Of a DNA stretch of 64,000 bases, positions 47,077-64,000 are shown piece after piece. Source of the stretch: Rhizodiscina lignyota (Eukaryota); assembly GCA_010015805.1 (NCBI GenBank), contig ML978123.1, forward strand, positions 2,232,001 through 2,296,000, in the 5' to 3' direction. A program made the position numbers and the translations under genes. The stretch's first letter is position 1. Each line of letters starts with the position of its first letter. The notes under the pieces were generated by a model. The model was not told the origin of the DNA. It searched no databases and saw nothing but the letters and a program-made list of their open reading frames with translations.

Positions 47077-49020
47077 ATGTCTGGCGTACTACAGACGAGG
47101 CATTTGCGATGCTTCTCCAGTCCCATCACGCAGAGCTCCCTTCGGGCGCTTCGAGGGGGTTCGCCGGCTGTGCCCGTATACAATTTTGGATCTCATCAAA
47201 GAAGAGACCTTAGCATTGCACAGTTAGACAATGACAAAAGAGGTGCAATAACGCATCGAAGAGCTTGATTGATATCATGCTAATGGCTTCATTAACTTAG
47301 ATCGACAAAGAGTCGTCATCCTGGGCTCTGGTATTCTTCTTCCGATCCATAATTTTTGGACCTTGACTGACCGTATCGTACAGGCTGGGCTGGCTTCACA
47401 ATCGCTCGACGCCTTAATCCAAAGCTTTATCAAGCTATCGTTGTTTCCCCTCGCTCCTATTTTGTATTTACTCCGCTCCTCGCAAGCACATCGGTTGGCA
47501 CTCTCGAATTCCGCACCGCGCTCGAACCCGTCCGTTCAATCACAAAACCTGTGGAGTTTCTCCAAGGCTGGGCGGACGATGTCGATTTTGCCAGCAAGAG
47601 AATCGCTGTTGAGGAAGCGGTGGATGATCCTCGAGGCACATCAGCGTTAACATACGACCGAAACAAGCCAGCTGTGAAGTCCTTGGCTGAGCAGCAGGCG
47701 GAGAAGTTCCAGGAGAAGAAGAAGGGGGAGCTGTTCGACTTGACATGGGACAAGCTGATAATTGCAGTTGGATGCTATAATCAGACCTTCGGGACACCAG
47801 GAGTGAGGGAGAACGCGATGTTTTTGAAAGACGTCAGCGATGCGAGAAGGATACGGAACCGGCTTCTGACATGTATGGCCTCACTTTGGCTGCCACATGT
47901 AGCATAGGCGCTGATGATGGCTGATAATAGGCTTCGAGACGGCCTCTTTACCTACAACGACCGATGAAATGCGGAAAAACTTATTAAACTTCGCTATTGT
48001 CGGAGGCGGGCGTAAGTATAACGGACTTCATCTCTCACGCAAGAAAGTTTGTTGATTCGGAAAAAACAGCAACCGGCATTGAGTTCTCCGCTGAGCTTCA
48101 TGATCTCATCCGGGAAGACATGGGAAAGCTATACCCTACACTCATGCCATTCTACAAAATCACAGTATACGACATTGCACCCAAGGTACTATCAATGTTC
48201 GACGAGAAGCTGGGCAAGTACGCTCTCAAGCATCTTCAACGCGAAGGTGTTCAGGTCAAGACGTCTCATCACGTTGAGGAGCTACGACGGGGATCACCAA
48301 AGGCAACACTCGATAAAGACGCTGCGAAAGGCGCAGATATGGGTTGGACACTGAAGACTAAGGAAGAGGGTGAAGTAGGCGTAGGGATGTGCGTTTGGAG
48401 CACCGGGCTGATGATGAACCCGTTTGTTGAGCAAAAGCTTGCCGGAACAGTTCAGCTGCCGAAGGAGGGTATTAAATTCGCCGGTGTCAGTGAGGCGGAG
48501 TCGAGAACGACGGAATGGCTTGTGAAGAAGGCCCCGAAAAGTGGAGGCGTCACGACGGACGATAAACTGCGCGTTCTCCTGCAACCTAAGGACAGCAAGG
48601 ACGGCTCACGGAGTGCAGTTATGCAGGATGTCTATGCACTGGGAGATTGCGCAGTCACGGAGGGCACGATGTATCCCGCCACCGCCCAGGTTGCCAGCCA
48701 GAAAGCAGAGTGGCTTGCTAAACGTTTCAACGCCAGAGATATAGACACTCAGAAAGGCTTCAATTGGAAGAATATGGGCGTCATGGCGTACCTAGGAAAC
48801 TGGAATGCTGTTCTACAGAGCTCAGGTGGCGACTTCTCTGGCAGGACAGCCTGGTTTATTTGGCGAGGTAAGTGAAACGATAAATCTATTTAAACGAGCA
48901 AGCTAATACTTTGCACTAGGTGCATACCTGACGAAGGCGGTTTCATGGCGCAATAAGATATTGATCCCAACGTACTGGTTCATTAATTGGCTATTTGGCC
49001 GAGACGTCTCACGGTTTTGA
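47077..49020 (+). CDS. Type II (alternative) NADH dehydrogenase, mitochondrial, multi-exon
   Basis: Leader then [65 protein letters not shown] and [10 protein letters not shown]. Confidence 0.9.
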
Positions 49021-51856: not shown

Positions 51857-52911
51857 ATGAAGCTTTGCGTTCTCTCTGCTACTTTGTGCTTTAACCTGGC
51901 AGCTGCTCTGCCCTCCTTGCCTTCATGGCTCACATCTGAATTTTCAGCCGAAATTCCGGAGGAAATTCATTATTTTACATGGCATTCTCCAGGGCCCAAT
52001 GATGGTATGCATATGGAATAGCTCACCGATGCTGGGATGCTGAGAGTCGATAGCACGAGCCCCTTGTCCAATGCTGAATACTCTGGCGAACCATGGATTC
52101 CTCCCTCACAGCGGCAAAAGCATCACTGAACGTGATACGGTTAACGCTCTGTACACCGCCCTGAATATCAATCAGACTCTCGGTCAATTCCTGTTCCAGA
52201 AGGCTATGACAACCAACCCTACACCTAATGCTACAACTTTTGACCTTGACGATCTCGATCGTCACGATATCCTTGAGCACGACGCATCTCTGAGGTTTGT
52301 CGGGGTTCTCATTTGCAATCCGCTCGATTTCCTTTGCCCTACCAAGTCCATGAATCGAATTTCAAGTCACCGACGTTCCAAAATAGTGCAGTAACTTATT
52401 CAAAACTATTCAGTCGTGGCGACTTTTACTTCGGAGACGATCACACGTTCAATCAGACAATCTTCGATGAAACGAGGTCATACTGGACGGAACCCATTAT
52501 CGATGTCCAAATGGCAGCAAATGCTCGCCTAGCTCGAGTCCATACCTCGAATGCGACTAACCCAACCTTCATGCTCACTGACCTCGGTAGGAAATTCAGT
52601 TTCGGAGAGACGGCTGCGTACATCCTCGTTCTCGGTGATAGAGTTGCTGGCACGGTGAAAAGGTCGTGGGTGGAGTATCTCTTCGGTCAGCACTATAATC
52701 CTGCTGGTAGATGCTGAACACTATCCAGCTAACCATTCTTCCAACAGAGAAGGAACGTCTGCCGCTTGAGCTAGGCTGGAGAAAGAGGAAGGTAGAGATC
52801 TCAAATGGTCATGTCGGCAATCTTCTTCAGAGGATAGTGAATGCAACTGGAGCCTCCGCACAGGATAAGGAGATAATGATCAAGCGTGGAGGTATGCATG
52901 TAGGGCTTTGA
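51857..52911 (+). CDS. Unspecific peroxygenase / heme-thiolate peroxidase (chloroperoxidase family, short type), 4 exons
   Basis: Signal peptide; RAPCPMLNTLANHGFLPH with the proximal Cys; LEHDASLS|R.D; E.AAY and ERLP.ELGW. TATAAAG at 51777. Confidence 0.92.
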
Positions 52912-58090: not shown

Positions 58091-58627
58091 TCATCCATCG
58101 TCTGCGGCCCTCAGTCGCTCCCAAGGGTCCTCGACGAAGCTTGGCTTGAAGTACACCATGTCCCCCGCCTCATTCCTCACGCCTCTGCTCAGTGCCGCCA
58201 ACTCCTCCCCGTCAAGGTCCCCAAGCTTCTTCCCCTGGATTCGCGCGTACAGTCCCGCCCCGCTCTTATGACTCGGCGCAGAGGAGCTCCCATAGCCACG
58301 ACCTGAACCTCCGTCTGAAAAAGCCGGCTTCGATGGCAACTGCTGCAGATCCTGCGCCTCTTGGTTCGCGGCGGGGGCGGCCGTCGTCGCAATCCCTGCT
58401 TGAGTGTCGTCGCTAGACGATACGTTTCCCTTGCCACGGATGCCCAACGGCGTCGAATTAGCTCCGCGAGCTGTGCTGTTGCCCGAGGCCGACGAAGCAT
58501 CGGTGACGGTGAACCGGCCGTCGTCGTTTTTGCGCCGTTTTGCGCCCGGCTTCATGCCGAAGGAGGTGAAGCCCATCGCCGCCGCAATCTCCGGGTCGAC
58601 CTCGAAATCGTCGTCTTCAGGATCCAT
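58091..58627 (-). CDS. Small conserved protein with N-terminal AMGFTSFG and C-terminal YFKPSFVEDPW (MPLKIP-like) motifs
   Basis: 178-aa intronless ATG ORF with GC3-rich codons. Two short motifs flank a low-complexity linker; basic AKRRK may be an NLS. Confidence 0.8.
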   Translation of the reverse strand: MDPEDDDFEVDPEIAAAMGFTSFGMKPGAKRRKNDDGRFTVTDASSASGNSTARGANSTPLGIRGKGNVSSSDDTQAGIATTAAPAANQEAQDLQQLPSKPAFSDGGSGRGYGSSSAPSHKSGAGLYARIQGKKLGDLDGEELAALSRGVRNEAGDMVYFKPSFVEDPWERLRAADDG

Positions 58628-59039
58628 GGCAGTTAAGGTGTGCGAGAGGTGAGGGGTTTAGAGTCGCAGTGAAATAGTTTTGGGACAGGTGTCGATGGGA
58701 TTGACGCAGAGCAGAATGGCCAACTGGTAGGGCTAGCGGATCGGCCCGCTAATGTGCAGGAGGCAGGAGGCAGGATCGTGCGTTAGACACGCATGAAGCT
58801 TGAATATCGTGACAACCTTCAGAAAGAGTGAGCTTGTTGGAGTATTTGTCAATTGGAACTATGCAGGAATTGCAGAATATATTCTGGTGCGGAAATGGAA
58901 GATGGTTGTTCGTCTTCATTGTCACCGTAATTCTATCTACACATATTCACATATTCACTAGGAACAGCAATAAAATCTTCAGTTGAATCATGCTTTTGGC
59001 CATTTTCCAATTCCAAACGCCCTTTGCCTACCTATGAGT

Positions 59040-60486
59040 CTATGGATAAAGCGATTTGAATGGTATAGTCGAAAGTTGTGCGCCTGGGTTCCCGCCCTGA
59101 ATACCAAACAGATTGTAGATCCACTTCATGATGATGAAGAACGATTCTGGCTCGCCCATGTGCTTGATGCCAGGCACGAAGCGTGCTTCCTTCACCGGAC
59201 CGTGTTGAAGTGCAAGATAATAGTCGTCGATGGGGAAGATCTCATCTTCTGTTCCATTGACCAGCAGCAGGCGTGCGCAGCGATCCTTGTCGAGGGTGCC
59301 GTCCTTGAGTAGGGAGAAGCGGTCCGAGGCTTCCTTCTTGAACGCCTCGACATCGTCGCCGTAGCCCCACTTGTAGCAGAGAGTGTTGGCAAGGCTGCAG
59401 GCAATCAGTATTGTCAATATTTCTCGACAGGACTTGAGTTTAAACATACTCGAATGGATACTCAAGGTGGTTCACCTCATCCAACCACTCTCTGTCGAAC
59501 ATATGATGGCACCCACCACCAAGAGACACAACTCCCGCCAATCTGTCCGGGTGCGTGTGTGCAACGCGAATGGCATAGTATCCACCTGTGCTGAACGCCC
59601 ACACGCACAGCCTCTTGCTGTCGATTTTCTTGTTCTGATCACACCAATCCAGCAGCGATGACCACAATCTGTCAGGGCTCTTTGGGTCCTTTGGCGTCGC
59701 AGGGCAGTCGCCCGTGCCTGGAATCTCCACAACAATAACACCGACGCCATTGCGTCTCCATCCCTCCATCCACACTGCCAGCTCAGTCCGGTATCCATCC
59801 AAGCCTGTGAAGATGATCACCACCGGCGCAGGCTTGCTCTCTGACGCATCTTCTGGCAGCTGGAACGCAACAGGAATTTCTTTGCTCTCGCCTTCAATCG
59901 CATTCGTGAACGGGATCTTGACTTCGTGTGCCGGATGTTCTCTCATGCCCATACCCTTGAACGCGCAGTGCTTGCACTGTTCCCAGGCCCAACGCTGCTT
60001 CTCGCTGCGTGGCGCCGGAAAGCGGCTCATGCGGTAGACGGCCGACGCACGCATGTAGTACTCGACGGCCTGCGCTGTGTCTCCAATCTTCTCGGCTTCC
60101 TCGGCCTTGGACTGAAGGTCTTTGGCTTTCGGGAAGAAGACTTCGGCGTATTTGTCCCAGTCGTAGGGCTCTTTCATGCCCAGCTAATCAACACATTTAG
60201 TATGGGGCTGTCGCGTGTACAGGGACGAGGCCGTAGGCAAGGAGGCGGGGCGTACTTTGTCCATCTCTTCGACAATGGGCTCGAAGTCTTTGGCGGCGCC
60301 AAACATGAAAGGGTAGACGCCCATTGTGGCCTGCAAATTGGTTAATTAGACTGGTTGCAAGCAGCAGTTTCGTGGACCTACCGGCTTCTTCCATTTGGTC
60401 TCCCACAACTGCTTGAAGCTCTCATGGTGGGGCGCTGGCGTCTTGAGCTTCTCCTGAATGAAGAACTTCCCTCCTGGTGCAGCCAT
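59040..60486 (-). CDS. ayg1: Ayg1/YG1 polyketide-shortening alpha/beta hydrolase (DHN-melanin pathway), 4 exons
   Basis: PHHESFKQLWETKWKKP|ATMGVYPF, RMSRFP, TGLDGYR, EIPGTGDCP, nucleophile FSTGGYYAIR, RLLLVNGTED and HMGEP. Confidence 0.92.
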
Positions 60487-61357: not shown

Positions 61358-63567
61358 TTACACTATAAGATACAAGCTAGTGATCACGCTAGGGCCGACG
61401 AACAGCCCTATCCAAAACACCACGTTGCCAAGGAGCTTCCGGCCTCTTAAGAGCTTCGTCCGGCTCATGGCGACCAAAGGCAGCTGCATCAGCTGCATAC
61501 AGAATAGATAGCCCCGTACTTTTTTGAACAAGCACCTGCAAATCGTTAGCAACTCTCCCATCAGAATATTAAAGGTAGCACTCACCACATGACCAACTCA
61601 TGCACCAATGCGCTCAATAGAAACGTCGCAAACGTGGCAGTCCCCTTGCTCAGATGGAACGCCGAAATGCTCGAATGATACACATGCCTGAGCAGGAAAT
61701 TATGCACCGGCCGATTCCAATCCCTCGCATACTGATCCCAACTGACGCTATTCCACCAATCACCATAGAAACCACGGTCCGCAAAGCGCGTGAGTTCGGC
61801 CAGAACATTCAGGACACACTCCCAAATGACGTACCACGTGAGCAGCTGCTCCAGCATCATCGGGAACAGCAGGTCCATGCAGATCCACGGGAATTCAACC
61901 CAGCGGTCCGGCAGGCTGAGGCCCGCCCGCTTCATCTCGATAGTCTTGAGGACTAGCGGGTAGATGTAGGCCTGCGAAACAATGATCATGACCCAGATGG
62001 TGCCGAGGCAGGCGGCCGTCTTCTCCGCGACATAGGCCCAGCTGATGCGCTCCTGGCGCGGGTACTCCAGCTCGTAGACCAACGTGGGCAGACAGACCCA
62101 GTCAGCCCAGTTGGCAACAGTCAGATTAGACGGATACGTGTTGCGCGTATCAGTGCACTTCCCATCAAGCTCCTCGGAGAGGCGCTGGCGCTCATTTTGC
62201 AGAACTCGTTCAAATGCCTCCATCTGGGATTGATCAAGTGACGAGCCGGCCTCGATGGCGGATGCAATGGATGACACTTCAGACTTCTCCTTGGCGAGGT
62301 TCGTGGATGCCGCGGAGGGATTGGACTGGCCGCGACGACGGGTAGTTTGTGTCGGTGTGGCCTCGGAGTTGGGAGAAGCGGCGTCGTCTAGGGCGCTCGA
62401 GAAAGAAAATGGAGGCTTGGTCTGTGTGGTTGGGCTGGCGACGGGGGACATCTGGCCTAGTTGGCGGAGTTTGTGTTCTACTATTCGCTTACGTCGGTAG
62501 ACTTGTGATACTGAAGGATTTGTTAGCCAAGGAAATAGAGGAGTAAATGAGCAATTCTCACGGTAGCCGTTGTAAAAGGCATAACTGTGCTGTTTCATGA
62601 GAAAAACGAGACCATGGAGGACGGTGAAAATCGTATGAGTCCACGGCCATTCTCGATAGTATGTCCACCATATCACTGCTCCGAGGTAGAAAGACTGCCA
62701 TAGGTTCTGGATGATCCATCCGCTGCTATTCCAGCTGAGATAGCCTTTTGCTATTATCTTTTGCAGTAGCACCCCTACCATTGTGCTAGCACACATGACG
62801 CCGTCTGTAACTCCCAGCATAAGCAACTCTCGGTCCGTCATCATGTGCAGAATCTCAGCTCGTCCGAGAATGCTCCCATAGTCTCTCCAATTGTGTGTCG
62901 CGATTCTGAGTAAGAGCATGAACATGCACAGCCAGAAGAGCGTGAAGAAGCCATAAAATGGCGACTCGCTACTGAGCGGGTTCTGACGGTCAAAGGTGGT
63001 GAATTGTCTTGTAAACACAAGGTCCCGAAACCTCTTGCGCTTCTTCGGATCGATCGACTCTTGCTCGATGGTGTGCCGCAGTATATCTCGAATCTCCGGA
63101 TCCTCCGCCGTCAAGACATAACGTCCTTTCTTATCTGTCTTCTCTAACACGACATGTATGCTTTTCCGCCGCTTGAGCTGTGGCTTGCCATTTGCCTCGT
63201 CCGAACGTGAGGAGCGTCGAATCTCGATAGCGCTTCTGATCTCGCCCGGCCCCGGGCTAGATGCCCTTGATCCATCCAGCGTATCAATTTTCAATTCTGC
63301 CTGATGTTCTACACCGGCCCCTCTGCTGCCAGACACGACAGCGCTGGCGTCTAGCTTCATGGTGTCATAGTCCTCTTCGTCAGAAGTACTCGAGGGCTCG
63401 CCGCTCCACTCCCCAGCGCTGTGCTCCAAGGAAGAAGGGTCGTGTTCGTCAAGCAATGAATCGAATGCGGCGCTGGAGCCATTTAATTGCGTATGGCCGT
63501 TAATATGGGGCGAGGTGGACATTGATGTCAGCTGCTCCTGAGTGTCTTTCCGCACGTCTCCAGCCAT
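61358..63567 (-). CDS. ARE2: Sterol O-acyltransferase (MBOAT; Are1/Are2-like), 3 exons
   Basis: FTRQFTTFDRQN, MKQHSYAFYNG, PTLVYELEYPR, FADRGFYGDWWNS, WNRPVHNFL.RHVY, SALVHE and GNVVFW. Introns 62511-62561 and about 61536-61585. Confidence 0.93.
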
Positions 63568-64000
63568 GGCGGCGTGTTTGTGTTGTTCCACTTCTGTGAT
63601 TTTAAGGTCTGACGCAAAACTTGCAAGTGGCCCCCGGCGCAAGGATGAATCCCGGCGGCCGCCTGCGTTACTTCAAAGGTGTTGCGTGGATGTGGAGCTC
63701 GCGTGCTCTGCGGAGGAAAGTATTAGGCGCATTACTCGAGCTTAAGCTCAGGTCTTACGACATGATCGGAAGAGCGCGGAGGTGAGAAGGATTCAGGGCG
63801 GAGGCCCGAGTGCGCCGAGGCGCAATTGACATACGTAGAGCAATCATGATGAAGGCAGCTATGCCATGAATTTTGGAGCACATCTATACTACGCGCGGCG
63901 TGGGTTGCGACCGCTGATTGAGTCGGTGATGCATTAGCCGGTCCAACAATGACGCTACCCCTGCCTGCCTGCACTTTAGGCTCTTGGGCTGCACCTGCAT

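Follow-up and report, generated by a model that had tools for sequence, protein, structure and literature searches.

A two-motif protein family of Pezizomycotina as a probable counterpart of the DBR1 partners MPLKIP/TTDN1 and SICKLE

The recruitment of the debranching enzyme DBR1 to excised introns is actively debated. In humans, the small protein MPLKIP/TTDN1 is reported to tether DBR1 to the intron-binding complex, its C-terminal region binding DBR1 directly and its aromatic-rich, disordered N-terminal region binding the complex (Townley et al.), and the C-terminal region is reported to raise the catalytic efficiency of DBR1 19-fold, TTDN1 lowering the Km 33-fold (JBC paper). In Arabidopsis, DBR1 binding by SICKLE is reported to be mediated by a core motif, S-M-L/A-E-D-P-W, the replacement of which by alanines abolished the two-hybrid interaction with DBR1, weakened co-immunoprecipitation and abolished complementation and in vivo function (10.1101/2023.07.25.550414). 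Conservation of TTDN1 has been stated to be metazoan-only (Townley et al.), and the SICKLE preprint places the MPLKIP core in fungal proteins as well, under InterPro IPR028265 (10.1101/2023.07.25.550414). Here we describe a gene of the fungus Rhizodiscina lignyota, located in a 64,000 nucleotide stretch of contig ML978123.1 (assembly GCA_010015805.1, positions 2,232,001 to 2,296,000, hereafter the window), which encodes a 178 amino acid protein with an MPLKIP-type core near its C-terminus and, near its N-terminus, a short peptide built around Met-Gly-Phe (the MGF peptide) that also occurs in spliceosome proteins. The product is probably a small, disordered nuclear adaptor, the Pezizomycotina counterpart of MPLKIP/TTDN1 and SICKLE.

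The gene, which is intact, is a member of a fungal family that is widely conserved. Its ATG-to-stop frame of 178 amino acids is uninterrupted (Table 1), the enclosing stop-to-stop frame (58091..58657) adds only 10 codons 5′ of the start and holds no earlier in-frame ATG, and 25 homologues align colinearly with the protein over its full length from M1. These 25 were recovered at E ≤ 0.001 by a word-indexed search (600 candidates). An exhaustive phmmer search of 1.84 billion representatives returned 303 matches at E ≤ 1e-3 (the best 150 of these being listed), of which 115 remained at E ≤ 1e-10 and 2 at E ≤ 1e-30. In a profile search 8000 candidates were scored and 169 of them fell at E ≤ 0.001 (120 of the 169 being listed). 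Named members span four classes of Pezizomycotina, with many in the Dothideomycetes (for example Acrodontium, Cenococcum, Cladosporium, Lophiotrema and Teratosphaeria), others in the Lecanoromycetes (Alectoria, Bachmanniomyces, Acarospora, Vezdaea, Bacidia and Xylographa), and further members in the Sordariomycetes (Xylaria, Astrocystis) and Leotiomycetes (Pseudogymnoascus); the range of the family may be wider than these four classes. All named members are annotated as hypothetical or uncharacterised, with the sole exception of an orthologue from Lophiostoma (P0186), to which we return below.

Across the alignment of the 178 amino acid protein with its 25 homologues the mean column identity is only 28%. 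Invariant in all 26 sequences are A15, A16, M18, G19, F20, F23, G24 and R32 at the N-terminal end and G149, G155, D156, F160, F164, D167, P168 and W169 at the C-terminal end. The family consensus of the N-terminal motif is DPxIAAAMGFSxFG, with a KKRK cluster after it, and that of the C-terminal module is LxALRxGVxNExGDxAYFxPSFxEDPW. When a strict pattern was applied to the first 166 proteins, 143 carried both motifs, 13 the N-terminal motif only, nine the C-terminal motif only and one neither. The 23 failures are due to variants (LGF, MGI, NPW, YPW and APW among them) and, in a few cases, to other alterations of the C-terminal core. Under a relaxed pattern both motifs were present, in the right order, in 236 of the 245 family proteins fetched; the nine exceptions were an inserted MGFNFSSFG variant (five), truncated records (two), a DPDPW variant (one) and an EDPV ending (one). 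Amongst two-motif members the N-terminal motif starts at a median of residue 17 and the C-terminal motif ends a median of 7 residues from the C-terminus, with 73–272 residues between them (median 143). A basic cluster lies no more than 16 residues after the MGF peptide in all 236, and a linker peptide, GANxxPLGxR, is present in 166 of the 236, Sordariomycete and Leotiomycete members showing it as G(S/G)N..PLG; we found no known counterpart for this peptide. Outside its motifs the R. lignyota protein is rich in Ser, Gly and Ala, and it contains no cysteine. As short peptides are kept whilst the linker between them varies, the family is defined by conserved peptides on a freely evolving disordered chain, and selection keeps three short modules: the MGF peptide with KKRK, GANxxPLGxR, and a C-terminal module of ~55 residues ending in YFxPSFxEDPW.

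The C-terminal peptide is matched by the Pfam family of MPLKIP (PF15502), residues 159–173 aligning with profile positions 23–37 of 64. The match has E = 9.5e-6 and scores 26.1 bits, short of the curated cut-off of 28.9. Its relatives match the family as well: 23 of a set of 26 at E ≤ 0.01, and 63 of 67 at E ≤ 1. The cut-off is reached by the orthologues P0101 (28.9 bits) and P0033, which has the module in two copies and scores 40.4 bits, the best seen, and the precomputed Pfam column of the searched database lists PF15502.12 for the R. lignyota protein and for 8 of the 25 other matches. Sordariomycete and Leotiomycete members matched weakly (P0243, E = 0.083) or failed to match (P0241), with YYDPSF..NPW still present. 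The C-terminal 42 residues alone retrieved no PDB sequence at E ≤ 10. Residue by residue, S-F-V-E-D-P-W (163–169, within PSFVEDPW) is identical to the published S-M-L/A-E-D-P-W at five of seven positions (S, E, D, P and W), the other two being hydrophobic replacements.

Like human MPLKIP/TTDN1 (PF15502, IPR028265), the fungal protein is small and largely disordered, with a C-terminal core of the form S-hydrophobic-hydrophobic-E-D-P-W after aromatic residues. The methionine of the S-M-L core, which we take to be Met144 of TTDN1, is occupied in the fungal family by an invariant phenylalanine (F164), and a conserved hairpin, LxALRxGVxNxxGD, lies ahead of the core in the fungal proteins. Met144 is itself reported as a disease-mutated residue (Townley et al.). 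Unlike TTDN1, whose N-terminus is aromatic-rich, the fungal protein begins with the MGF peptide and KKRK. SICKLE also carries the MPLKIP core, but it differs from the fungal protein as a 35-kDa, proline-rich protein conserved across angiosperms, and the MGF peptide goes unmentioned in the preprint's description of it (10.1101/2023.07.25.550414).

The closest matches of the N-terminal peptide among proteins of known structure are in the spliceosome. A profile search with the 26-sequence alignment against 177,635 distinct PDB sequences (E ≤ 10) matched four sequences, of which the top two, WDR70 and ZMAT2, are both spliceosome proteins aligned at a terminal MGF peptide: the N-terminus of WDR70 (residues 18–38, DPQLAVTMGFTGFGKKARTFD) at E = 0.0012 and 22.9 bits, and the C-terminal tail of ZMAT2 (residues 177–197, FEEDDEMAAVMGFSGFGSTKK) at E = 0.044 and 17.8 bits. 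The two others were FACT subunit sequences at E = 2.5, which we took as noise. The N-terminal 40 residues alone gave ZMAT2 as the sole PDB match (E = 0.13). Among Pfam families, SNRNP27 (PF08648) was the only one besides MPLKIP to recur in the 67 relatives, 17 other families having one match each; 17 of the 67 matched SNRNP27 at E ≤ 1, as did 3 of a set of 26 at the stricter E ≤ 0.01. In the Lophiostoma orthologue P0186 the SNRNP27 match scores 26.0 bits against a cut-off of 23.1, with residues 2–33 on profile positions 1–32 of 56. This orthologue carries both Pfam labels, PF15502 and PF08648, in the searched database, and its source name begins 'U4/U6.U5 smal...'.

These results bear on a first-pass annotation of the window, which had described a small, low-complexity protein with two compact motifs and an AKRRK cluster, all of which are present in the intact 178 amino acid open-reading frame. 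It had likened the C-terminal motif to that of MPLKIP/TTDN1 and the MGF motif to ZMAT2 and SNRNP27; the Pfam and PDB matches bear out both resemblances and add WDR70, which is closer than either of the two proteins named. The co-conservation of the motifs, which it had proposed as a check, is borne out by the 236 two-motif proteins and the invariant columns. Profile matches and co-conservation together thus support the sequence part of the earlier idea.

The likeness to each of these spliceosome proteins is confined to the peptide. The tail of human ZMAT2/Snu23 and the N-terminus of human WDR70 (PDB 5o9z and 6zym) carry a near-identical terminal peptide (fungal family consensus DPeIAAAMGFssFG..kkRKFd), whereas the remainder of ZMAT2 (U1-type zinc finger) and of WDR70 (WD40 domain) is unrelated to the fungal protein. 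We accordingly rejected membership of the ZMAT2/Snu23 family, there being no zinc-finger Pfam match and no cysteine in the sequence, and of the WDR70 family, the protein having 178 residues and no WD40 Pfam match. With SNRNP27K (PF08648) the fungal family shares the MGF peptide and its basic flank, which correspond to positions 1–32 of a 56-position C-terminal domain, but it has neither the second half of that domain nor the N-terminal arginine- and serine-rich region. The second half is described as holding the U-shaped M141 loop by the U6 ACAGA box and PRP8/SNU66 (PMC10581693, PMC11098459). Membership of SNRNP27K was also rejected, as the fungal protein has the first-half peptide only and not the complete domain with the M141 loop. 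Three human spliceosome proteins of different assembly stages, WDR70, ZMAT2 and SNRNP27, share a near-identical MGF peptide. A search for longer proteins sharing the N-terminal 40 residues gave nine candidates, none at E ≤ 10, a result which says little, as a 15-residue motif cannot reach significance among 5.8 billion sequences. The ESM Atlas gave sub-threshold leads only: an SNRNP27 cluster (0.76), unnamed Ascomycota clusters (~0.8) and a cluster in which 14% of the members carry MPLKIP.

Structure prediction by AlphaFold2, built on a 67-sequence alignment, agrees with the disordered character of the MPLKIP family, the protein being small and mostly disordered outside its conserved C-terminal region. 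The mean predicted local distance difference test score (pLDDT) is 63.6 and the predicted template modelling score 0.28. Residues 21–120, between the motifs, are predicted to be disordered (block pLDDT 47–60), and the blocks of residues 121–178 reach 73, 89, 85, 83, 71 and 78, with predicted helices at 124–130, 140–147, 162–165 and 170–176 and a small hairpin at ~150–158. A short helix is also predicted at residues 12–17 (block pLDDT ~75). Confident prediction is limited to the C-terminal module and this short MGF helix, which is the pattern expected of a protein built from binding peptides. When the model was compared by fold with 48,161 chains, a single chain reached Z ≥ 2 (Z = 2.1), a result that is uninformative for a peptide-like module.

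The reading that we favour, by a modest margin over doubt, is that of a Dbr1 partner that may also dock on the spliceosome. Its two parts are of unequal strength: the Dbr1 partnership is likely, by analogy with TTDN1 and SICKLE, and the docking through the MGF peptide is tentative, being argued from the shared occurrence of that peptide. On the favoured reading the C-terminal module would fold, in the manner reported or modelled for TTDN1 and SICKLE, onto the metallophosphatase domain of Dbr1, and once bound would stabilise or activate the enzyme, leading to faster turnover of intron lariats. For the human pair, MPLKIP has been modelled on the metallophosphatase domain of DBR1 by AlphaFold 3 (PMC13736545). 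The AKRRK cluster looks like a monopartite nuclear localisation signal, and the KKRK cluster of the family might carry the protein, possibly with bound Dbr1, into the nucleus, where the MGF peptide might dock the complex on a spliceosome-associated surface. Such docking would replace the role of the aromatic-rich N-terminal region of TTDN1.

Several observations weigh against this reading. On the C-terminal side, the PF15502 match of the R. lignyota protein covers only ~15 residues and falls below the cut-off. TTDN1 is reported to leave Entamoeba Dbr1, an enzyme without the disordered C-terminal domain, unaffected, and yeast Dbr1 is described as lacking the metazoan extension (JBC paper); the fungal partner may therefore act differently. 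On the N-terminal side, the R. lignyota protein itself has no PF08648 match at E ≤ 10, and no SNRNP27 chain appeared in the PDB profile search. In the B, B-like and tri-snRNP structures as described, the modelled parts of SNU23 are amino acids 16–36 and 45–75, the zinc finger and amino acids 118–133, and SNRNP27K is placed at the tip of the endonuclease-like domain of PRP8, the MGF peptide of each lying outside what was modelled (PMC10943123, PMC11208138). Finally, DBR1 is reported to be tethered to the intron-lariat spliceosome by its own peptides, which bind C19L1 and SYF1, and the AlphaFold2-Multimer screens reported in the same paper gave no confident MPLKIP–spliceosome interface (PMC13736545), which weakens the tether model taken over here from TTDN1.

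The missing interface in those screens (PMC13736545) would suit a protein that, as reported for SICKLE, imports or stabilises Dbr1 as a chaperone and that does not dock on the spliceosome, its MGF–KKRK segment serving nuclear import or retention or binding a non-spliceosomal partner. The basic cluster that follows the MGF peptide in every two-motif member would fit such a role, as would the reports that SICKLE helps DBR1 to build up in the nucleus, that the enzyme moves back and forth between nucleus and cytoplasm (2025 review), and that FgDbr1-GFP (a fusion to green fluorescent protein) is seen in both compartments. However, a simple nuclear localisation signal would need nothing like the strict conservation of the MGF peptide, in which M18, G19, F20, F23 and G24 are invariant, and the recurrent matches of this peptide elsewhere are to spliceosome proteins only. 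We therefore rate a chaperone of this kind as rather unlikely, though the strongest of the alternatives.

The brevity and sub-threshold score of the PF15502 match also leave some room for a protein that does not bind Dbr1, in which the DPW peptide would be convergent and the SNRNP27/ZMAT2-like peptide would make it an accessory factor of the tri-snRNP (small nuclear ribonucleoprotein), of the B-type spliceosome or of another nuclear complex. The weak or missing PF15502 scores of the Sordariomycete and Leotiomycete members (P0243 and P0241) and the source name of P0186 point the same way. Such a factor is nevertheless quite improbable: PF15502 is matched by nearly all of the 67 members, some above the cut-off, the invariant residues coincide with the core that experiment has found to be required, and the second half of SNRNP27, with its functionally mapped M141 loop, is absent from the family. 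It is scarcely credible that the N-terminal helix and MGF are the remnant of a UBA-type element and the protein a ubiquitin reader: an 'MGF motif' is described in the literature as the ubiquitin-contacting loop of UBA domains, and the helix-then-MGF layout resembles UBA helix 1 and its loop, but no UBA family is among the Pfam matches of the 67 members at E ≤ 1 and in place of a three-helix bundle AlphaFold2 predicts a single helix of six residues with disorder after it.

An extension of the favoured reading, Dbr1 partnership with spliceosome docking, takes in the spliceosome proteins that share the peptide. DPxxAAxMGFxxFG might be a shared docking tag for one pocket on a core spliceosome component, joined in Pezizomycotina to the Dbr1-binding MPLKIP peptide, so that Dbr1 would be delivered only after earlier tag-bearing factors have left. 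We regard this as speculative and, on balance, unlikely. If true, the tag would couple splicing to debranching both physically and temporally, and would supply in fungi the link between MPLKIP and the spliceosome that recent human work could not find.

Several lineages elaborate the basic arrangement. In the lichen fungus Vezdaea acicularis (P0033/P0167) one MGF peptide is followed by two tandem C-terminal modules, GVRNxRGDMVYFxP.F.EDPW. Lecanoromycete linkers hold a further element, ..DPLAAxALDExAGxLLExGxLPQxLDWxxGFAEGGP.., in one copy in P0232 and in two copies in P0234 and P0236, which the R. lignyota protein does not have. In members from Xylariales and Pseudogymnoascus (P0241–P0245) the context of the core differs, reading WW/LWY.DYYDPSF..NPW..LEK..GL....G.W, and the linker contains an extra YLDTSRP peptide; these Sordariomycete and Leotiomycete differences suggest class-specific additional binding peptides.

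Around the R. lignyota gene, none of the four neighbouring genes has a functional tie to it (Table 1). That of the FrsA-like esterase directly upstream is split over two overlapping open-reading frames (59040–59471 and 59440–60183), between which there is probably an intron or a frame change.

Table 1 Features of the 178 amino acid protein, its gene and the neighbouring genes. Positions are those of the window; the codon positions of the motifs were verified by hand against the window DNA.
Feature	Residues	Window positions	Strand	Basis or remark
Whole coding sequence (178 codons and stop), single exon		58091..58627	minus	Open-reading frame listing and translation
N-terminal MGF motif DPEIAAAMGFTSFG	11-24	58556-58597	minus	Invariant columns and profile alignments
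Basic cluster AKRRK	29-33	58529-58543	minus	R32 invariant, K33 nearly so
Linker motif GANSTPLGIR	55-64	58436-58465	minus	Alignment consensus GANSxPLGxR
C-terminal module	121-178	58094..58267	minus	Two helices, short hairpin GVRNEAGDMVYF, then MPLKIP core
MPLKIP core motif YFKPSFVEDPWERL	159-172	58112-58153	minus	Pfam PF15502 match and invariant columns
FrsA-like esterase (alpha-beta-hydrolase)		59040-60183	minus	Neighbour directly upstream
MBOAT acyltransferase		61585-63672	minus	Neighbour
Family-2 peroxidase fragment		52277-52714		Neighbour
Pyridine-nucleotide oxidoreductase fragment		47988-48872		Neighbour

The first-pass annotation had also known of no description of the architecture, a view that stands in part. 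Searches of Creative Commons PubMed Central and bioRxiv for the MPLKIP motif brought up only the SICKLE preprint and a review, and no paper that treats the two-motif architecture or the function of fungal MPLKIP-motif proteins. A full-text search of the same collections with peptide strings found none on the shared spliceosomal MGF peptide, the listed hits all being for 'MGF motif' in the sense of the UBA-domain loop. Fungal proteins with the MPLKIP core are already known, however, from InterPro and the SICKLE preprint, P0186 already carries both Pfam labels, and among the fungal MPLKIP motifs aligned in SFigure 7 of the preprint the present family may already be represented (10.1101/2023.07.25.550414).

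The family joins a peptide of the DBR1-binding type to one that has elsewhere been seen in spliceosome proteins only, and draws attention to the MGF peptide common to WDR70, ZMAT2 and SNRNP27K. It offers a simple and genetically tractable test of an MPLKIP-type link between Dbr1 and the spliceosome, and may link splicing to intron disposal in fungi.

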